A DNA stretch of 42,034 nt, taken from the NCBI GenBank assembly GCA_041662045.1, contig JBAZTI010000003.1, positions 1 through 42,034 of the forward strand. The letters are read 5' to 3'. Below are positions 15,692 through 37,083 of this stretch, piece after piece. The notes beneath the pieces were generated by a model that searched no databases, was not told the DNA's origin, and saw only the letters and a program-made list of their open reading frames with translations. A program made the position numbers and the translations under genes. The DNA comes from Candidatus Micrarchaeia archaeon (lineage in GTDB: Archaea; Micrarchaeota; Micrarchaeia; Anstonellales; Anstonellaceae). Numbering within the stretch: position 1 is the first letter of the stretch; every line of letters starts with the position of its first letter.

Positions 15692-16219
15692 TCAGAAAAG
15701 CTTCCTCACTTCGTCCTCCTTTATCCTGCGCCTGCATTTCTCAAGGTAGGCGTACACGGATGCGTGGTTGGAGCCCTCTATTATGCGGAAAACCGCCTCC
15801 ATTGCATAGTTGAGGGTGTCAAGCCTGCAAATCACGCCCACGGTGTGCCCGTAGCAGGCGACGTCCGCGCCCACCTCCTCCTTTATTATCTCCTTGGTGC
15901 GCCCGTTCTCGCCAATCACGCGCCCCATTATCCTGTGGCGCGCCTTTTCGCTGCCCGCATAGTCCCGTAAATCTATGAGCTTGAAGCCGTATTCGTCGGA
16001 AAGCAGCCTAAGCGCGATTGCTGGCTCAAAGCCCCTGCCGATGGCCTTCACGATGTCCTTGCCTATGAACTCGTCTATCGGGTCGCCCGAAATTTCCACT
16101 GCGCCGTCCGAGTCCACGGAAATGCCCACCTTCATCCTGCGCTCCAGGTAGTCCTTGGTCTCGCCCGACTCCCCTAGAAGCGCGGTAACGCGCTCGGACG
16201 GGATTTTCACAATCTGCAT
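15692..16219 (-). CDS. Two-KH-domain RNA-binding protein (aDim2/Pno1-like)
   Basis: Two KH-type GxxG regions (LLGESGETK, VIGENGRTK). About 175 aa from MQIVKIP. A TATA-like TTTTAATAGG lies ~35 nt upstream. Confidence 0.7.
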   Translation of the reverse strand: MQIVKIPSERVTALLGESGETKDYLERRMKVGISVDSDGAVEISGDPIDEFIGKDIVKAIGRGFEPAIALRLLSDEYGFKLIDLRDYAGSEKARHRIMGRVIGENGRTKEIIKEEVGADVACYGHTVGVICRLDTLNYAMEAVFRIIEGSNHASVYAYLEKCRRRIKEDEVRKLF

Positions 16220-16264: not shown

Positions 16265-16348
16265 CTACATGAAGTCCGCCAATCCTTTCTGCGCTTGAAG
16301 GCGCCGACATGCCCGCCCGCCTACATGAAGTCCGCCAATCCTTTCTGC
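16265..16348. repeat. Perfect 28-nt direct repeat containing the stop codon and last 8 codons of the PolD large subunit gene
   Basis: CTACATGAAGTCCGCCAATCCTTTCTGC occurs at 16265-16292 and 16321-16348, a period of 56 nt. The second copy is the true gene end (..QKGLADFM*). Confidence 0.95.
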
Positions 16349-19300
16349 TTTTCAGGCTCTTCCGTGAAGATGCTCGTGATGTCCTTCCTGAAAAGCTCCA
16401 TCCTCTGCTTCATGTATGGGGGCAGGTGGTAGCGCTCTATGAGGCGCTCTGCGTGGTCCAGGTATTTCGTTATCCCGCCCTTGTTTATGGTGAGGAGCAG
16501 CTTTCCCCCGCACGCGTTGCACTTGCCCGAGAGCGGCACGCGGCGGTATTTCACCTTGCACTCCAGGCAGCGGAACTCCTGCTGCGAGAACGAGCGCAGG
16601 TTGCCGTATAAATCCGGGAAAAAGTGGTGCAGGAGCAGCCGCTCGGCGGCGTCCGCAGGGTCAACCGCGCGTATTTTCTCCTGCAGGGTGAATTGCGCCT
16701 CTATTTTCTCGCCCATGTCCTTGAATTTCAGGTAGGTACTCTGGTGCGGGCCTGCGGAAACGTCCGCGGTCTCGTGGGAGTAGGGAAGGGACCCGTACTG
16801 CTCGGGCTTTCCAAGCAGCTTCTTCACGGTGTCCAGCTTAAGCTCGGATGGGGAGGCGTACTTGTCCGAAAGCTCGTAAAGCTCGATGGGGTAGGCGGAG
16901 CACACCTCCATGGAGTGCGCCTCGTCGTCCACCTCGTTGGGGTCAAGCTCCGTGGTGAGCACCAGGGGCGCGTCCATTGTGCCGCCGCGCGACTCGGGAA
17001 GGAATGCGCGCGAGAAGTTCAAGAGGCCGTCCATGAGCAGTATCACCGTGTCCTCGTCGCCGTCCGCGTTCCTCCTTTTCGCGGTGTGGAAGAACGGGTG
17101 GGCAAACCCCACGTGCGCGTCCGTGAAGCCCACAACGCGCGCAAGCACGCCTGCCGAGGTGTGCGGCGAGAGCCCGATAACCAGGTGCCCCAGCAAATCC
17201 TCCTCCTTCGAAAGATTGTAGAAGCGGGGCATGCCGTAGAGCTTGTCAAGCAGGTCGTCGATGAAGCGCGAGACCGAGAACAGGGTGTGCGCGCCGCTCC
17301 TTGAGAGGATGATGTCCTGCGCGTTGAGCGCGATTACCTGCGAGGCGTGCTCGAGCGGCCTGCCGTCCTTGTCGTGGGAGTAGCCGAAGCCGCGCGCCTG
17401 CTCCGCGCTTATGCCCATCTCGTCTGGGCGGAAATGAGTGAGGGGGATGTCGGTCGCGTCGAAGCGGCAGGTGCCGTCGCGGAACACGAACACGCCGTGC
17501 GCGGCGCGCAGGAAGCCCTTTTCCAGCGGCTCGGGCGTCTTTGATGCGGAGAAAAGCCCTTCCACGCCCTTTATGTCGGCAGACTTCGAGGCGTCGATGC
17601 CCGTGCGCTCTGCCGCGCGCTCGTAAAGCTTTATTATGTCCACCGCGCGCCTGTCGTAGTGCTTGGTTGCCACGCGGCACTCCGAGCACTCCTCGCTGTT
17701 CTTCGGCCTGCCGCACTTGGGGCAGACCAGCAGGAGAGCCGCCCTGCCGCCGCACGCGCACAAAGGCGAGAACGTCGTGTTGCCGCAGGAGGAACAGCGC
17801 ATGCGCGCGATTTCCACCTCCACGCCCCTGCCCTCGCGCTCCCCCTTGGCGCGAAGCTTCGCATATGCGCGGCTTATGGACGCGTTCTTGTCTATGCGGG
17901 TGCCTATCGGGAAAAGCACGTTCACGCTCTTTTTCATGCGCCGCTCGCGCGCCTTCTCGGGCCTGCCCATGCGCGAGCCGATGTATGTGGGCGCCTTGGG
18001 CATTATCCTCATGCCGGAAAGCTCGGACAGGGTGCCGAGCACCGGCTTTTTCCCGTCGAAAAGCGCGTCGAACTTCTCGCCCGTGATTTTCTTGTCCACC
18101 ATTATCCCCATGGTCTTCAGAAGCGCATAGGCGTGCTCCCCGGATATTTTCACCCTGCCCTCCTGCACGCTGTGCGGCACGCAAAGCTCCTCAAGCGCGG
18201 CTTTTGCAGGCGAGGACTCCAGCTCGAAGGATTCGAGCTTCAGGAGCCCGTAGCTCGGCTTGCCTGTGCGGAGCCACAGGGCAAGGTCCCGCAGCTGCTC
18301 GTGCGTGATGTCGTGCCAGAAGTACGTGTAGGTGGGGTGCAGTGGCAGGCCCGTCCTTCGCGCAAATGCCACCGCCTCGCCTGCAGGGCAGCCAGGGCGG
18401 GGGGGCAGCGCCCCCTGCTTCTTCGCCATGAGCTCGAGGCGCTCCTCGCACCATGCGGCAGGGAAAAGCGGGTGGTTGCTTTTCAGGAAGTCCCCGATCG
18501 AGACGAGCATGTCTCCCAGGAAAAGTATGCGCTCGACGCTCGGCAGGAGGCGCTCGGCCTCGCTTGCAGACTGCACCTCGACGACCGAGCCGTCCTTGAG
18601 CTTCACGGTGGGGCCCAGTATGGAGTCGCACGGGGTGATGACCGTGCTCTTGCCGGGCCGCTCTATTTTCATCTGCGTGCCCACCGCGAGGAAGGAGTCC
18701 AGCATGTACATGCTTGCAGGGTGCACCGCCTTGCCCATTATGCCGCTTCCGCGCGACCTGCCATAGCGGAGCCGCCAGCCGCCCTTTGTGGAAGGGTATG
18801 AGAAAATGGCCCTGCCGGCCACCGATTCCTCGAGGAAGCGGAAGTCGGGCTTGGGCTCGAACGCGCCCTCCTTTTTCGCCACCTTTATGATGGAGTCCAT
18901 CCAGCCCCAGTCAAGCCCGATTTTTTTGGTGTACCTTGAGACCTTTGCCGCCTTTTGGGCGATGCCTTCGCATATGACAAGCGCGATGCCCGAGCGCACG
19001 CGGTTGGTTGCGACCCCTGGCACGTCGCGGTGCACAGACACCTCTGCGTCCTCGGTGGGGTCGCCGTCTATGCAGACAGGGCAGCTCTTCACTATGTGGC
19101 GTATGTCCGCCTCGGGCGGGCGGTACTGCAGGTGCGCGGAGCGCGTGCCGTAGACGTCGATTTCCTCAACATACCTGTCAAGGAGCTCGTCGGTTGGGCG
19201 GAAGTCGCCTATGCCGAGCTGCCTGCGCGCCACGTCGCCAAGCACCACCGCAAGCGCGGCCACCGTGCCGCCTGCGGAGCGGATGGGGCCTGCGAAATAA

Positions 19301-19719
19301 ATGGCGAGGTAGTCGCTGCCGTCCTGGTTGCTCCGTATCTCGAACTTGGATATGCCCTCTGTCGGCGCCACGAGCACGCCCTCGGTCAGTATGCCTACTC
19401 CTGTCCGCACGGACTGCTCGATGAGCCTTTGCTTGCTTCCGCGGATTATCTCGCCGCGCACTATCTTGAGCACCACCATGTGCGCGATGGTCTGGCGCGA
19501 GTGCCCCTCCTTCTCAAGCGCGCGGATGACCTCGGTGATGCCTGGCGGCCCGACAATCCCCTCCACGCGCGCTGCAACGTCGGCTGCGCGCTTTATCTCA
19601 ACGTAAGGCGCAGGGTCGAGCCCCTTGCCCCGCGCCTCCTCGGCAACCGAATAGGCGCGCTCGCGGGCTGACGCAAGCGAGGAGAAATACCTTTCCATTT
19701 CCTCGCTCCTTTCCGTCAT
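16321..19719 (-). CDS. polC: DNA polymerase II (PolD) large subunit DP2
   Basis: 1132 aa. The N-terminus YFSSLASARERAYSVAEEARGKGLDPAPYVEI..AARVEGIVG and the Cys clusters (CSSCGNTTFSPLCACGG, CPKCGRP..CSEC, CLECKVKY..CNACGG) are typical of DP2. ATGA overlap with the DP1 gene. Length leaves no room for an intein. Confidence 0.95.
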   Translation of the reverse strand: MTERSEEMERYFSSLASARERAYSVAEEARGKGLDPAPYVEIKRAADVAARVEGIVGPPGITEVIRALEKEGHSRQTIAHMVVLKIVRGEIIRGSKQRLIEQSVRTGVGILTEGVLVAPTEGISKFEIRSNQDGSDYLAIYFAGPIRSAGGTVAALAVVLGDVARRQLGIGDFRPTDELLDRYVEEIDVYGTRSAHLQYRPPEADIRHIVKSCPVCIDGDPTEDAEVSVHRDVPGVATNRVRSGIALVICEGIAQKAAKVSRYTKKIGLDWGWMDSIIKVAKKEGAFEPKPDFRFLEESVAGRAIFSYPSTKGGWRLRYGRSRGSGIMGKAVHPASMYMLDSFLAVGTQMKIERPGKSTVITPCDSILGPTVKLKDGSVVEVQSASEAERLLPSVERILFLGDMLVSIGDFLKSNHPLFPAAWCEERLELMAKKQGALPPRPGCPAGEAVAFARRTGLPLHPTYTYFWHDITHEQLRDLALWLRTGKPSYGLLKLESFELESSPAKAALEELCVPHSVQEGRVKISGEHAYALLKTMGIMVDKKITGEKFDALFDGKKPVLGTLSELSGMRIMPKAPTYIGSRMGRPEKARERRMKKSVNVLFPIGTRIDKNASISRAYAKLRAKGEREGRGVEVEIARMRCSSCGNTTFSPLCACGGRAALLLVCPKCGRPKNSEECSECRVATKHYDRRAVDIIKLYERAAERTGIDASKSADIKGVEGLFSASKTPEPLEKGFLRAAHGVFVFRDGTCRFDATDIPLTHFRPDEMGISAEQARGFGYSHDKDGRPLEHASQVIALNAQDIILSRSGAHTLFSVSRFIDDLLDKLYGMPRFYNLSKEEDLLGHLVIGLSPHTSAGVLARVVGFTDAHVGFAHPFFHTAKRRNADGDEDTVILLMDGLLNFSRAFLPESRGGTMDAPLVLTTELDPNEVDDEAHSMEVCSAYPIELYELSDKYASPSELKLDTVKKLLGKPEQYGSLPYSHETADVSAGPHQSTYLKFKDMGEKIEAQFTLQEKIRAVDPADAAERLLLHHFFPDLYGNLRSFSQQEFRCLECKVKYRRVPLSGKCNACGGKLLLTINKGGITKYLDHAERLIERYHLPPYMKQRMELFRKDITSIFTEEPEKQKGLADFM

Positions 19720-21194
19720 ATCCCCACCCCTTCCTTGAAGCCTATGTAGTTCATCTTGCCAGTCATCGCCTCCAGCACCGGCACGAGCCCGGGCGATGGC
19801 ACGTGGCCCATCCTCACCTGGAAGTCGGTCCTGTCCTGGAAGGTGCCGCTGTTCAGGAGAAGCGCGCCGCGGTAGAGCATGTGCCCGTTCTTGTGCACGT
19901 GCCCCATGTGCACCACGTCGGGCTCGTCCTCCATCACTAGGTAGTCGTGCGCCTCGGGCACTATGAGGTTCTGCCCGTAAATCGGGGAGAGGTGGCGGCG
20001 GCGCACAAGCTCCAGCATTGCCTCGTGCGGCTTGTCGTACGAAAGCCCGCCTGCCGCGATAATGGAGTCGAGCGAGTTGCCGTGGTATATGAGGTGGCGC
20101 AGGCCCTCTATCTCCACGCGCGAGGGGCTGCCCACGCGCACCACGTTGCCCTTTATCATGTCATAGGGGATGATGGGCTGGGGCTCTGCGCGGCGCACAG
20201 CGTCGTGGTTGCCAGGCCCCACTATCACGGTTATGTAATCGGGTATCTTCTCCATGAAGGAGTCGAACATCTCGTACTGCTTGTAGATGTCCTTCACCGC
20301 AAGCTCCTTCTCCTGCTCGGGGTAGATGCCTATCCCGTCCGCAACGTCGCCTGCGATAACGACGTACTTCACCTTGCCTGCCAAATCAGCCCTGCCCTCG
20401 GAGCCGTTGAGCCAGCTTATGAAGTGCGAGAACTCGCCTTCCAGGAACTTCTTGCTGCCCATGTGCAGGTCCGAGATGTAGGCGATGGACAGGTCGCGCT
20501 CGGACTTCCTCTGCTCGCGGGCAACCGGGATGTCCGGCCACTCCACGTTGTCGCAGATGAAAAGCTCGTCCACGCTCTTGCCGTCGAACGCCACTATGTC
20601 GTCGGAAAGTATCTTGTGGTGCACCTTGAAGCCAGCGGTGTCCTTCATCACTACCACCTTGGCAGAGCCCTCCTCGTCCTCCACTTCCAGAAGCACGTTG
20701 CCTTTTTTCGTCATCTGCTTCCTGTTCACCATTGCGATGAGGCGCACTTTCGTGTTCTGGACGGACTTGAGCTTGCTTGTGGGCACGATGGCGTTCTGGG
20801 TGATGCGGGCGCGCACGATCTTGGAGATTCTCGCGTACCTGTCGCGGAAATGCGCCACGAAGTCCTCGAGCTTGCCGGTGCAGCGGGACTTGCCGCTCAC
20901 GTCGGATTTTTCAATGACTTTGTAGTTAGGGGAGTATTCCTTTGCAACCGGGCGGAAGGAGGGCGAGCGGCTCACCGCCGTTTCCACGGGGATTTTTCCC
21001 TCAGCGGACAGCATCCCGTCGATGTCGTCCTTTGCGAGCATGAACTTGCCGCTTGAGATGATTTTTTCAAGCGCGGAAGGCTCGAGGGCGAAATTCTCGA
21101 GGAACGAGTATGCGTCTGGGGAGAGGCGGATGCCTGCGGCGTAGATGGAGTCGATGTCGGATTTCAATTTCCCACCCGCAACTTGCTGCCTCAT
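19716..21194 (-). CDS. polB: DNA polymerase II (PolD) small subunit DP1
   Basis: OB-fold region followed by calcineurin-like phosphoesterase motifs DLHMGS, GDVADG, GNHD, HGNS, GHVH. Confidence 0.93.
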   Translation of the reverse strand: MRQQVAGGKLKSDIDSIYAAGIRLSPDAYSFLENFALEPSALEKIISSGKFMLAKDDIDGMLSAEGKIPVETAVSRSPSFRPVAKEYSPNYKVIEKSDVSGKSRCTGKLEDFVAHFRDRYARISKIVRARITQNAIVPTSKLKSVQNTKVRLIAMVNRKQMTKKGNVLLEVEDEEGSAKVVVMKDTAGFKVHHKILSDDIVAFDGKSVDELFICDNVEWPDIPVAREQRKSERDLSIAYISDLHMGSKKFLEGEFSHFISWLNGSEGRADLAGKVKYVVIAGDVADGIGIYPEQEKELAVKDIYKQYEMFDSFMEKIPDYITVIVGPGNHDAVRRAEPQPIIPYDMIKGNVVRVGSPSRVEIEGLRHLIYHGNSLDSIIAAGGLSYDKPHEAMLELVRRRHLSPIYGQNLIVPEAHDYLVMEDEPDVVHMGHVHKNGHMLYRGALLLNSGTFQDRTDFQVRMGHVPSPGLVPVLEAMTGKMNYIGFKEGVGI

Positions 21195-22970: not shown

Positions 22971-23125
22971 CGGGCCCGTGGCGCAGCCTGGATAGCGCGG
23001 CAGACTTCTATCCGTAGGGGGCAGATGACTCAGATAATATCCCCCTAACGGTTCACCCCCAATTTGGGCGCATGAACCGGCGATGGAGAAATCTGAAGGT
23101 CGTGAGTTCAAATCTCACCGGGCCC
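22971..23125 (+). tRNA. tRNA-Arg (anticodon TCT) with an ~80-nt intron after position 37 (about 23010-23089)
   Basis: Acceptor GGGCCCG/CGGGCCC, D arm GCGC-AGCCTGGATA-GCGC, anticodon stem GCAGA / TCTGA (27:43 is G.A), loop CT-TCT-A, T arm GTGAG-TTCAAAT-CTCAC, discriminator G. The intron folds into two long stems. Confidence 0.8.
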
Positions 23126-23135
23126 GTTCTTTTTT
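23126..23135 (+). terminator. Oligo-T termination tract after tRNA-Arg
   Basis: TTCTTTTTTC immediately follows the discriminator base. Confidence 0.5.
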
Positions 23136-23137
23136 CA

Positions 23138-23219
23138 AGAAGGTCGTGATCGTCAACTGCGTAGCAGTTGGCGAGAAGTTGTGCGAAGCACAACTGTGAG
23201 TTCAAATCTCACCGGGCCC
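23138..23219 (+). repeat. Second copy of the tRNA-Arg 3' part, interrupted by a pair of hairpins
   Basis: GAAGGTCGTGA (23138-23148) equals 23094-23104. GTGAGTTCAAATCTCACCGGGCCCG (23195-23219) equals 23101-23125. The 46-nt insert holds CAACTGC-GTA-GCAGTTG and AGTTGTGC-GAA-GCACAACT. Confidence 0.9.
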
Positions 23220-23244
23220 GAATTTCCTTTTTATTAAGAAGTAC

Positions 23245-29915: not shown

Positions 29916-31421
29916 ATGGAAAACAGGATATTTGCAGTTTTGGCGCTCGCGCTTTGCCTTGCAGGCGCCGCGCATGCCACGCTTTACGTGGACTCGTATT
30001 CCGTGTCCCCGGCAAGCCTCAACCCCGGGCAGGAGGGAGTGGTCACTTTTGCCATACAAAACCCCATACCGACCGGCTTGACAACCACCGACCAGCTGGA
30101 GAGCGTGCAGGTATTCTATGCCGCGCCTGCCGGGATTGAGTACAAGGCAGCAAGCCCGTTCATGGTGGGCACCATAAGCGCCGGCGGCTCGGCATTGGTC
30201 ACAGTGCCTTTCAAGGTCCGCGCAGACGTGAAGGGAGGGGTGATAACCGCCCCGTTTTACATTTCCATGAAGGACGCGACAGACCTCAAGACAATAAATG
30301 CCGGGATAACCGTGGTGAACCCGGCCATACTGTCATTCAGCTCGGACCACCAGACCGTGCTTTCCACCGACCTGATAAACCTCACAATCACCAACAACGG
30401 GGGCTCGGCCTCCAGGGCATCGCTTTCGTTCGCAGCAGGGAGCAATTTCTCGTTCGTAGGCCTGACCTCGATATACATCGGCGACATCAAGGAATCCGTT
30501 TCGGTGATGGTGCCCCTTGACTCGAGGAAAGTGGCCGAAGGCGTGACAGGGGTGCCGTTCGTGCTTTCCTACACGGACGACGGCGGCAACAGCATTTCGT
30601 CCTCAAACACGCTCACGCTGGCAATCAAGAAGGAGAAGGCGGACGTGGCATTCACCCAGCTTGAGCCCATTGTGACCAACAAGGACAATGTGCTTCGCAT
30701 GAAGGTGAAGAACAACGGAAGGCCGCTTGAGGACTTCCGCGTTTACCTGACCGACGAGCTGGTAAAGGCAAAGGACTCGACGCCGATAAAGCTCGGGACG
30801 CTTGGCACCGATGACGAGAAGACGTTCGAGATCCTGGTCTTCGTCACCCAGCAGCCGGGCCTGAAGGCCACCTCATTCCAGATAAAGTGGGTGGAGGAGG
30901 ACGTGGACAAGGAAGAGGCCATCAGCGTGCCGATTGCGATAAGCTCGGACGCAGAGGTCGGGATATACCTGGATGCCAAGCCCGCCCCGATTGCGGTGGG
31001 CGGGGACTACACGCTCTCAGCTACAGTTTCCAACCTGGGCTCGTACAAGATAGCCAACGTGGTGGTGTCTCTCGAGGAGAGCGACGCGTTTGTCGGTCTC
31101 AACGTGCAGAAGGAGCAGTACATAGGCAACCTGGACAATGACGCATTCTCCACAGTGCAGTACAAGATACGCGTGAAGCCCGCCATTGAGGCAGGCCAGT
31201 ACCCGCTTGTTTTCAAGGTGCGCTACAAGGACCAGTCCGGCCTTTGGATTGAGAAGGAAATCAGGACGATGGTGAGCGTAAGGCCTGCAAGCGAGGGAGT
31301 GGCAAAGGACAACGGCAGCGGAACGCTTATGCTCATCGGGGGCGTGGCAGTGGTTGCGGTTGGCTACTGGTACTTCAGGATGAGAAAGCCCAAGCATGGG
31401 CTTTCTCAGAAGTCGAGCTAG
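29916..31421 (+). CDS. Secreted CARDB/S-layer-like repeat protein with a C-terminal TM anchor
   Basis: RBS-like AGAGGTGA precedes the ATG. Signal peptide MENRIFAVLALALCLAGAAHA, repeated beta-rich modules, C-terminal LMLIGGVAVVAVGYWYF plus a basic tail. Confidence 0.7.
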   Translation: MENRIFAVLALALCLAGAAHATLYVDSYSVSPASLNPGQEGVVTFAIQNPIPTGLTTTDQLESVQVFYAAPAGIEYKAASPFMVGTISAGGSALVTVPFKVRADVKGGVITAPFYISMKDATDLKTINAGITVVNPAILSFSSDHQTVLSTDLINLTITNNGGSASRASLSFAAGSNFSFVGLTSIYIGDIKESVSVMVPLDSRKVAEGVTGVPFVLSYTDDGGNSISSSNTLTLAIKKEKADVAFTQLEPIVTNKDNVLRMKVKNNGRPLEDFRVYLTDELVKAKDSTPIKLGTLGTDDEKTFEILVFVTQQPGLKATSFQIKWVEEDVDKEEAISVPIAISSDAEVGIYLDAKPAPIAVGGDYTLSATVSNLGSYKIANVVVSLEESDAFVGLNVQKEQYIGNLDNDAFSTVQYKIRVKPAIEAGQYPLVFKVRYKDQSGLWIEKEIRTMVSVRPASEGVAKDNGSGTLMLIGGVAVVAVGYWYFRMRKPKHGLSQKSS

Positions 31422-31434
31422 GGGCTCGGCTAAG

Positions 31435-31470
31435 ATGAGAAAGCGCAAGCCGGCGCTTTCCCAGAAGTAG
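31435..31470 (+). repeat. Degenerate duplicate of the last 13 codons + stop of the preceding gene
   Basis: ATGAGAAAGCGCAAGCCGGCGCTTTCCCAGAAGTAG (MRKRKPALSQK*) versus the gene end ATGAGAAAGCCCAAGCATGGGCTTTCTCAGAAGTCGAGCTAG (MRKPKHGLSQKSS*, 31380-31421). Confidence 0.8.
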
Positions 31471-34001: not shown

Positions 34002-34167
34002 GCAGGGATAGCCAAGCTTGGTCAAAGGCGCAGGACTCAGAGAGCCCTTTTTGCTCCTCCCGCAAGCGCTCGTCGCAAAAAGCGCTCGCGGAAAAGTAAA
34101 ATGTGCAACAAGGTCTTCGGAAATCCTGTCGGTTAGCCGTTCGTGGGTTCAAATCCCCCTCCCTGCA
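34002..34167 (+). tRNA. tRNA-Leu (anticodon CAG) with an ~81-nt intron after position 37 (about 34042-34122)
   Basis: Acceptor GCAGGGA/TCCCTGC, D arm GCC-AAGCTTGGTCAAA-GGC, anticodon stem CAGGA/TCCTG, loop CT-CAG-A, long variable arm (CGG-TTAG-CCG), T arm GTGGG-TTCAAAT-CCCCC (one U.C mismatch), discriminator A. Confidence 0.8.
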
Positions 34168-34184
34168 CTTCGCTCTTGCTCAGT

Positions 34185-34248
34185 GCAGGTCGGTTTCGAC
34201 CTGCGGTCGAAATCCCGCCAGCAAGCTGGCGGTCCCCCTCCCTGCACT
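34185..34248 (+). repeat. Degenerate second copy of the tRNA-Leu T-arm/3' end, embedded in two hairpins
   Basis: Hairpin GCAGGTCG-GTTT-CGACCTGC (34185-34204), T-loop-like GGTCGAAATCC, hairpin CGCCAGC-AA-GCTGGCG (34216-34231), then TCCCCCTCCCTGCACT (34233-34248), identical to 34154-34169. Confidence 0.85.
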
Positions 34249-36788: not shown

Positions 36789-36833
36789 CCGGTTCTTTCC
36801 ACTTGAGCCGGCTGAAATGAGTCTGGCGCGCCA

Positions 36834-37083
36834 TTATTTGAGCCGAATCGCATCAAGGTTCATCGGGGCTCGCGAGTCGATGCGCAACGCTAGTTGCGCA
36901 GATTTTCAGCCTCAGCTGAAAAGACGAGCGGGCTCTACTTGAGCCTGATGGCATCCAAATTCATGGGTGCGCGCGAGTCGACGGACAACCGCAGTTGGAC
37001 GGATTTTCAGCGCAGCTGAAAACAAGAGCGCCATCCTATTTCAGCCTGATAGCATCAAGATTCATTGGCGCTCTTGAATCGAT
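36834..37083 (-). repeat. Tandem array (period 101 nt, 3 copies) of the aCPSF1 3' coding tail plus a hairpin-bearing spacer
   Basis: Tails at 37036-37083 (in the gene), 36935-36982 and 36834-36881. Spacers of 53 nt each hold TTTTCAGC-N3/4-GCTGAAAA (37004-37022, 36903-36922) and a CAAC-N4-GTTG stem (36882-36899 is perfect). Confidence 0.95.

Follow-up and report, generated by a model that had tools for sequence, protein, structure and literature searches.

The duplicated end of the DNA polymerase D large-subunit gene in a micrarchaeal genome: a possible scar of recurrent insertion at gene ends

The stretch of DNA considered here, which we call the window, is a 42,034-nt contig from Candidatus Micrarchaeia archaeon (JBAZTI010000003.1 of GenBank assembly GCA_041662045.1, positions 1 to 42,034), and our interest lies in a single gene boundary within it, at which the end of the gene for the large subunit (DP2) of DNA polymerase D (PolD; the gene is called polD below) is present twice. 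The window is the whole of contig C3 of its source assembly, a metagenome-assembled genome (MAG; G000 below) of 1.21 Mb in 91 contigs, which is 83% complete and carries 6% contamination. Three genes on the minus strand define the setting. The gene for the small subunit of the polymerase, DP1 (19716-21194; Pfam Metallophos and DNA_pol_E_B), lies upstream and overlaps by 4 nt the DP2 gene (16321-19719; 1132 aa), which is recognised by the Pfam PolC_DP2_N, central and catalytic domains (E<=1e-96) and by DP2 chains in the Protein Data Bank (PDB). Downstream of DP2 comes an aDim2/PNO1-like gene with two KH domains (15692-16219), which matches Pfam KH_1, the protein PH1566 (2e3u/3aev; E=5e-33) and PNO1 chains.

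At the boundary between DP2 and the aDim2-like gene, CTACATGAAGTCCGCCAATCCTTTCTGC occurs twice, at 16321-16348 and at 16265-16292; the two copies are identical at 28/28 positions and lie 56 nt apart, start to start. Read in gene sense, that is, on the minus strand, the repeat begins one base (a G) before a CAG codon for Q and runs through the last eight codons of DP2 to a closing TAG, so that it spells QKGLADFM and a stop. The copy proximal to the gene (A1, 16321-16348) is the functional gene end. It is kept apart from the distal copy (A2, 16265-16292) by a GC-rich filler of 28 nt (B, 16293-16320), which reads GCGGGCGGGCATGTCGGCGCCTTCAAGC in gene sense. The distal copy lies past the stop and in the -1 frame relative to DP2, and is untranslated; it is followed directly by TTTTAATA (16264-16257), the TATA-like box of the aDim2-like gene, whose ATG (16219) is 45 nt away. 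An earlier note, written from the letters of the window, had described just this arrangement: an exact duplication of the gene end with its stop codon, a GC-rich spacer of 28 nt between copies 56 nt apart, and a second copy adjoining the TATA box of an aDim2-like gene. All of it stands, with both copies located, the open reading frame (ORF) assigned to DP2 by Pfam and the neighbour matched to PH1566 as a KH/PNO1-like protein. Neither the repeat nor the filler occurs anywhere else in the 1.21-Mb assembly, and a chance origin is excluded for an exact 28-mer recurring within 56 nt (roughly estimated, ~1e-10 would be expected in a stretch of this size), a conclusion shared by the block-shuffled control given below.

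Could such a structure have been made by the assembler, as a stutter or a strain-variant chimera in a short-read metagenome assembly? The source is, after all, a fragmented MAG with some contamination, and at small k a repeat of only 28 nt may be collapsed or threaded wrongly. However, a stutter only repeats sequence that already exists, and the filler is novel and unique in the assembly; the A1/B and B/A2 junctions must be present in reads for any de Bruijn path to pass through them; the site is 16 kb from the nearer end of the 42-kb contig; and independent assemblies of other species show a like structure at this very gene end (G006 and G011, discussed below) as well as at others. We consider an artefact very unlikely.

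The relatives of this archaeon are what allow the structure to be read as an insertion. With a 1.3-kb query around the junction, matches were obtained in 29 of 41 related genomes, and the orthologous intergenic regions include sites that are single-copy and free of any insert. Between the polD stop and the aDim2 ATG there are 101 nt in the window, but only 33 nt in the congener G012, 40 nt in G015, 41 nt in G017 and 43 nt in G003; each of these four has one tail, and in each the stop lies 2-9 nt 5' of a TATA-like box. In addition, an independent metagenome contig from JGI (L027) has the identical 27-nt tail once, and its TAG is followed directly by CTTTAATATAG. Subtracting 56 nt from 101 nt leaves 45 nt, and the tail, stop and TATA box (relatives have a TATA-like box in the corresponding position) then stand as they do there, which makes the distal copy the old gene end, now displaced. 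Judged by this comparison, the 56 nt made up of the filler and one tail copy represent a lineage-specific insertion and the derived state. A simple tandem duplication by replication slippage is excluded, since the filler is missing from the empty sites (L027, G003, G017, G012 and G015), and is unlike both the 28 nt upstream and the 28 nt downstream of the tail; sequence that was absent from the ancestral state calls for insertion, not for tandem duplication. Across the order, a short-range duplication of the polD tail is found in 2 of 176 genomes, namely G000 and G006, whose fillers show no demonstrable homology. An exact-protein look-up for a second assembly of the same strain returned no exact match to the aDim2-like protein on record.

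The duplicated codons are of some interest in their own right. The last 199 aa of the DP2 ORF align to solved DP2 chains (phmmer against the PDB; E=1e-54), and query residue 191 aligns with residue 1197 of the Pyrococcus abyssi protein, which places the Q of QKGLADFM on Q1198; the end of our protein coincides with ...EKQRTLMGF of Thermococcus kodakarensis and with 1197/Q1198 of P. abyssi. Madru et al. (PMC7101311) showed that Q1198, L1199, L1201 and I1202 form the internal PIP (PCNA-interacting peptide) box of P. abyssi DP2, that this box occupies the PCNA pocket and is needed for PCNA-stimulated full-length synthesis by P. abyssi PolD, and that a far C-terminal PIP box (cPIP) is situated 40-60 residues beyond it. 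QKGLADFM fits a pattern of the type Qxx[LIM]xx[FY][FYWM] as well as the position of Q1198-I1202, and Q[KR]GLA[DE]FM* is kept in all 14 of the congeners that were read. On the strength of this alignment and conservation, we take QKGLADFM, the very C-terminus of the micrarchaeal DP2, to be homologous to the Thermococcales internal PIP box. As a separate observation, the DP2 of the window (16321-16920, minus strand) ends at the internal PIP box, without the 40-residue linker and the cPIP, a dual PCNA- and primase-binding peptide, of Thermococcales DP2.

How old is the event? From the identity of the copies the earlier note had concluded that it was recent, and the comparative data agree, with two qualifications. 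The comparable event in G006 is visibly older, its distal copy having suffered a one-base deletion and lost its stop, and the G000 insertion is absent from the other 175 genomes of the order that were searched. The first qualification is that 0 differences in 28 nt bounds the divergence of the copies only to less than ~10% (95% level). The second is that the L027 contig, which is ~85% identical overall, nevertheless has an identical 27-nt tail, so that the identity of the copies could partly reflect conservation.

Seen across the congeners, what lies between polD and aDim2 varies from 33 nt to 5.2 kb. Beyond the empty sites, the junction measures 72-312 nt in G002, G007, G022, G011 and G019. 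It is larger in others, at ~0.75-0.8 kb in both G009 and G018, between 2.0 and 2.4 kb in G006 and in G020, and 5.2 kb in G014. In G006 the gene's own tail is followed by a 24-nt filler and a second tail; its filler and that of G000 show no convincing relationship in a global alignment (P=0.22), and although a junction-anchored 7-mer is common to both (P ~0.015), unrelated fillers score equally. In G011, an insert of 135 nt built as a hairpin follows the stop directly and ends in GCCGACTTCATGTA just 5' of the TATA box, with a 14-nt remnant of the tail between the cassette and that box. Contig C21 of G000 repeats the first 39 nt of this insert at 90% identity, along with its CACCGCCCAAACCCCCC end, and there the cassette is flanked by a different exact duplication, of 23 nt as against the ~14 nt at the G011 junction. 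The G011 junction holds a true hairpin cassette, whereas the G000 filler is neither built as a hairpin nor part of a dispersed family. G007 has a 15-nt copy of the tail with no spacer, and the inserts of G006 and G020 carry a convergent homologous gene of 633 or 744 aa (L023, G006:C31 710-2611; L024, G020:C82 565-2799). These comparisons point to the polD-aDim2 junction as a spot that has been hit repeatedly and independently. The 633- and 744-aa proteins share a C-terminal GHG...SC(E/S)T pattern, which suggests a candidate His/Cys peptidase.

A functional role for the duplicated segment, for example as a terminator or insulator, as a regulator's binding site or as a -1 frameshift extension that would add a second PIP box, has a certain appeal, given that the distal copy is directly upstream of a TATA box and that, starting just ahead of A1, the -1 frame stays open to the end of the distal QKGLADFM*. 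The comparative picture speaks otherwise. The segment has no fold and belongs to no Rfam family; it is not conserved, with two of the 176 genomes of the order having anything comparable, and those with fillers that are not demonstrably homologous; the distal copy of G006 is decaying; and the sequence upstream of the aDim2 TATA box is not conserved among congeners. As for frameshifting, a TGA closes the -1 frame two codons ahead of A1 and no slippery sequence is apparent, and we have treated the opening of that frame through the distal copy as a coincidence. Nothing indicates a function for either the filler or the distal copy, a functional element seems to us highly improbable, and the pair is most likely a harmless scar.

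Where, then, did the filler come from? Its fold is no better than that of shuffled sequence (z=+0.58), it has no terminal inverted repeats and no Rfam match, and we accordingly rejected the idea that it is a structured RNA or a hairpin cassette. Allowing <=3 mismatches, it was not found outside G000 in the 23 genomes of the genus. Local or genomic templates gave partial matches only at the level of the shuffled control, which rejects a templated filler of the kind left by template switching or microhomology-mediated end joining (MMEJ). No exact 22-mer of the filler is present in the viral contigs of IMG/VR, and comparison with phage and plasmid collections gave only noise. A single match emerged from 596 Gb of species-representative genomes, in a Lysobacterales MAG, where it extends to 24 nt exact (CGGGCATGTCGGCGCCTTCAAGCG; L068 6174-6197, JALHRS010000057.1) and adjoins a Mu Gam-like gene in a prophage-like region. 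Some ~0.07-0.15 chance matches of a 22-mer would be expected in 596 Gb, and the two extra bases lower this about tenfold, so that for the 24-nt match we estimate about 0.01-0.1; the match is suggestive, but so close to the chance level that it is not decisive. Contamination of our MAG by Lysobacterales was considered and rejected, as the 24-nt match itself is the only such sequence present. No similarity between this filler and others of the class described next could be demonstrated, and a GC-rich stretch after stop codons is not a general motif of the genome (5.8% versus 5.1%, no enrichment).

The polD tail is far from alone. The earlier note had remarked that it shares its architecture with other gene-tail duplications in the window, and this proves correct and extends to the genome as a whole. 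A scan for short-range direct repeats at a loose threshold (18 nt, <=2 mismatches) gave 205 in the real sequence against 17 in a block-shuffled control. Repeats with a spacing divisible by three are mostly intragenic and are protein repeats; the other spacings cluster at 42-83 nt with a mode of 54-59 nt, none being below 42 nt and few above 100 nt. Several of the tails duplicated with their stop codon belong, like that of DP2, to conserved genes, namely aCPSF1/FttA (with its tail in three copies), aRF1, and the genes for a DEAD-box helicase and for a PurF-like enzyme. The list goes on to two paralogues ending in MENSWGFII* (3-5 copies each) and to surface and membrane proteins, and several tRNA 3' ends, conserved too, and one gene head (on contig C19) are duplicated as well. 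The duplications are 8-38 nt long, and what they enclose ranges from fillers of 16-35 nt through hairpin cassettes of 45-65 nt to cargo of kilobase size. On the basis of crude gene calls (1295 genes, 91% coding), 7 of ~10 tail events have a gene-proximal copy that ends 0-3 nt past the stop, which is ~5x what uniform placement would give. TATA-like and T-rich 7-mers are enriched more than 10-fold in the 30 nt past stop codons genome-wide.

Two further features of the class are particularly pertinent to its origin. Tail pairs that are not identical show 43 nucleotide differences in all, of which 38 are synonymous where 19% would be expected (P=3e-22). This tells us that the distal copies once evolved as working gene ends, and it is not what one would predict from simple target duplication with neutral decay thereafter; the polD pair, having no differences, is uninformative in this respect. 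In addition, the aRF1 locus offers a close parallel to polD. In the empty state, seen in G021, the stop directly adjoins the TATA box that belongs to a conserved element downstream; short fillers occupy this place in other congeners; and inserts of 0.6 kb (G020) and 2.4 kb (G003) keep 7-9 nt of the old tail right 5' of the TATA box.

Enzymes known to insert DNA are conspicuously scarce in this genome, and here one must bear in mind that every negative for G000 rests on a MAG from which 17% of the genome is missing. Cas1 (PF01867) is absent from what there is, no tyrosine recombinase (PF00589) was found, and searches for Ku, reverse transcriptase and TnpB were likewise negative. A single transposase-like remnant was seen, a fragment of an IS200-type Y1 (HUH) transposase on contig C36 (8171-8371, minus strand), which covers model positions 33-99 and has an in-frame TAG. 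These negatives bear on two rival explanations, of which the first is off-target integration by Cas1-Cas2, in which a spacer is placed at a non-CRISPR site and a repeat-length target is duplicated around it. A repeat-size duplication around a spacer-size insert is what we see at polD, the filler's 24-nt match falls in a prophage-like region, and off-target integration that seeds new arrays is documented, in work of Nivala et al. (2018) as cited in PMC7054753 and 10.1101/148544. However, besides the lack of Cas1 in G000, only 2 of 23 congeners have it; the array found next to cas1 in G016 (G016:C7, L069 8029-9693) has 26 repeats of 30 nt, ATTTCAATACCACAATGGTTAATTCGAGAC, with spacers of 34-37 nt, a geometry unlike 28+28; duplication lengths in our class are not fixed; a preference for gene ends is not known for Cas1-Cas2; and the matched prophage is bacterial, not an archaeal virus. 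Of all the explanations weighed here, this one strikes us as the least credible, and we give it hardly any weight.

The second is a remnant of an integrative element, whose attachment site (attP) mimicked the polD tail, which entered by means of a tyrosine integrase and whose interior was later deleted to the 28 nt now left between attL and attR. The resemblance to the attachment-site duplications made by tyrosine integrases is real: an insert sits at a gene 3' end, bracketed by repeats of that end, and the proximal repeat does regenerate an intact DP2 terminus, as is the classic outcome when the 3' end of a tRNA or protein gene is the integration target; this same genome has duplicated tRNA 3' ends; and tyrosine recombinases of ~400 aa are multi-copy in congeners, with 17 in G003 and 11 in G017 (L034-L038, from G003, G017 and G019). 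Nevertheless, no such recombinase was found in G000, the polD repeats are only 28 nt apart, and a near-total internal deletion would be needed at many loci, each with an att specificity of its own. One and the same cassette family bears different flanking duplications at different loci, which indicates that the repeat comes from the target rather than from a fixed attP. We also rejected the congeners' integrase elements as an autonomous counterpart, as no gene-tail repeats flank the four integrase units tested (three in G003, one in G019). An integrase remnant is in our view improbable. The recombinase genes examined in G003 and G017 are each followed by 2-3 modules of ~145 nt made of inverted GTTGCGCAGCT/AGCTGCGCAA motifs, which are probably arm-type binding sites.

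What we favour instead, at about even confidence, is that the polD structure is a genuine insertion of 56 nt, specific to this lineage, exactly where the DP2 stop meets the next promoter, and the scar of a recurrent process that inserts DNA at gene ends. The inserted material comprises the 28-nt filler, possibly foreign, and a repeat of the final 27 nt of the gene with one further base; the working C-terminus, which is the PIP-box homologue, and the stop now come from the proximal copy, and the old end is stranded distally, at the aDim2 TATA box. What the data show is the structure, its derived state, the empty sites and the statistics of the class; the route of recombination, its reversibility and the lack of function are inferred. 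The process would have acted repeatedly, in this genome and in other Micrarchaeota, placing DNA at conserved gene ends and always leaving an intact end behind. As to its mechanism, we infer end replacement by homologous recombination, in which our confidence is even at best and perhaps a shade lower. DNA from a close relative would bring in a polD end together with part of its own downstream flank, and would be joined on the left by recombination inside polD and on the right by a joint of short or no homology just 5' of the resident tail, homology being expected to run out at the end of the conserved coding sequence. A unit of this kind, once in place, could pass between lineages, using the gene as its left and the distal tail copy as its right homology arm, and recombination between the two 28-nt copies could delete it again precisely. 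Selection would complete the picture: in a compact genome in which many stops abut the next promoter, inserted DNA would survive only if it came with an intact gene end. Such selection would explain why the ends of survivors are rebuilt and the PIP-box end is never lost, and a tail that encodes a PIP-box homologue would explain why only end-rebuilding insertions survive at this particular junction. The boundary at the stop codon, the almost wholly synonymous divergence of older copies and the 8-38 nt of retained old end all fit homologous end replacement.

Several observations sit uneasily with this reading, and we should be frank about them. The polD copies are identical even at synonymous sites at which most congeners differ, for which the simplest account is that the resident tail was copied in place and not imported; an import fits only if the donor was very close, or was L027-like with the same tail. 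No donor with the filler after its polD stop was found among the congeners or in the 176 genomes of the order, and the last 2 kb of polD give no mosaic signal, although that is a weak test when the nearest relatives are only 85-90% identical. A single family of hairpin cassettes occurs at different loci with locus-specific duplications, which suggests that at least the cassettes insert with target duplication. Random right-hand joints do not predict a near-constant period of 54-59 nt. Finally, the structure is known from assembled sequence.

A rival reading is target-duplicating insertion in place, in which a staggered break, with nicks ~28 nt apart and the right-hand one at the stop/TATA boundary, is filled in from both sides and the filler is ligated in between, much as when a break with 5' overhangs is repaired and captures DNA. 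The 28/28 identity of the copies, a filler unrelated to local sequence, the 24 nt of it that agree exactly with a bacterial Mu-like prophage region (which is what captured foreign DNA would lead one to expect) and a cassette family bracketed by a different local duplication at each locus are all in its favour, and the likeness to the target-site duplications of transposons and of miniature inverted-repeat transposable elements (MITEs) is plain: a short non-coding insert, a flanking duplication of the target and empty sites in relatives. Known prokaryotic transposases make fixed target duplications of 2-15 bp. The 28 nt at polD and the 8-38 nt of the class are both longer and more variable, even within one cassette family (23 versus ~14 nt); the right boundary lies at stop codons far oftener than a sequence-blind cut would place it; older events diverge almost only synonymously; the polD filler lacks the inverted ends and the fold of a MITE; the candidate enzymes are missing, apart from the broken Y1 fragment, in the 83%-complete MAG; and the 24-nt match is itself near chance. 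We regard target duplication in place as possible but doubtful.

To return to homologous end replacement, a comparable process is homology-facilitated illegitimate recombination, which in naturally transformable bacteria combines one homologous anchor with one illegitimate or micro-homologous joint and leaves short insertions of foreign flank. From its description, the likeness would lie in the use of a conserved gene as the anchor. We know of no account of this process in DPANN archaea, and it does not predict either the 54-59-nt modal period or a retained old end that is consistently short (15-38 nt). A further comparison, again by description, may be made with the displaced ends of rhs, cdiA-CT and type VI secretion system (T6SS) effector genes, where an incoming end replaces the resident one, the old end persists downstream untranslated and older copies record earlier functional ends. 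The difference is that those loci swap variable toxic tips together with immunity genes under diversifying selection, whereas polD keeps a conserved housekeeping motif, the same peptide before and after, with no cargo gene.

In the literature that we searched, no published description of gene-end duplications in DPANN or Micrarchaeota was found. New for the polD locus are the proof from filled and empty sites, the recognition of the tail as a homologue of the internal PIP box, the statistics of spacing and stop offset, the parallel at aRF1, the negatives for enzymes and for CRISPR geometry and the near-chance foreign match. The value of the polD case is that of a clean and young example in which a filled site can be set beside matching empty ones, and in which a conserved replication gene was hit exactly at its stop and stayed intact only by way of a rebuilt end. 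Together with the other loci, it illustrates a recurrent way for very compact DPANN genomes to accept DNA without breaking genes. If homologous end replacement is the true route, stacked old ends would be a readable record of recombination between lineages; if a dedicated insertion machinery is at work, this would be a new kind of mobile-DNA system. A bolder version of the latter idea, which we think unlikely, is that Micrarchaeota have an undescribed insertion mechanism, independent of known recombinases, which acts at stop codons and tRNA ends, rebuilds those ends by an 8-38-nt duplication, prefers a unit of ~56 nt and is able to load foreign DNA. The filler's 24-nt prophage match would then be a captured fragment, a spacer-like record made independently of CRISPR, and polD the youngest and cleanest example.

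Other members of the class, in the window and beyond, show how varied these structures can be. Within the window, the aCPSF1/FttA tail (36828-37065, minus strand), which reads MNLDAIRLK*, stands three times in tandem with a period of 101 nt and with 11 of 11 differences synonymous, and each unit has a TTTTCAGCTG..GCTGAAAA hairpin. At 31379-31468 (plus strand), the C-terminal anchor tail of a CARDB/DUF11 surface protein is followed, 55 nt downstream, by a diverged copy (MRKRKPALSQK*) with non-synonymous changes and an indel. Two intron-containing tRNAs (22972-23220 and 34002-34248, plus strand), detected by Rfam and missed by ARAGORN, have 3' ends that recur downstream, the first after 94 nt with 25 nt exact and the second after 79 nt with 16 nt exact.

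Elsewhere in the genome, two paralogous genes that we could not assign to a family (C7 26148-26420 and C27 6095-6200) are followed by arrays of 3-5 units that re-encode MENSWGFII* with only synonymous changes; the first codons of each unit, ATGGAAAAYTC, pair with bases just past its stop in arms that covary from copy to copy, and a second, variable hairpin comes after the first. On contig C30 (8166-8282; L039/L041), a 38-nt copy of the aRF1 tail, with four synonymous differences, comes immediately after the gene end and is itself split by a 52-nt cassette of two hairpins, and the CAGGAG..CTCA..CTCCTG hairpin of this cassette recurs behind a duplicated tRNA 3' end on contig C45 (576-674). The element of ~250 nt downstream of aRF1, which is 93-94% identical across species and has no Rfam match, is probably an unannotated structural RNA. 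Finally, the one duplicated gene head (C19 7253-7386) is present three times with a period of 56 nt, so that AGTGGTCTTCATGGTGAAAT.. occurs thrice, and the last occurrence is the start (MVKYTIDK) of the next ORF.

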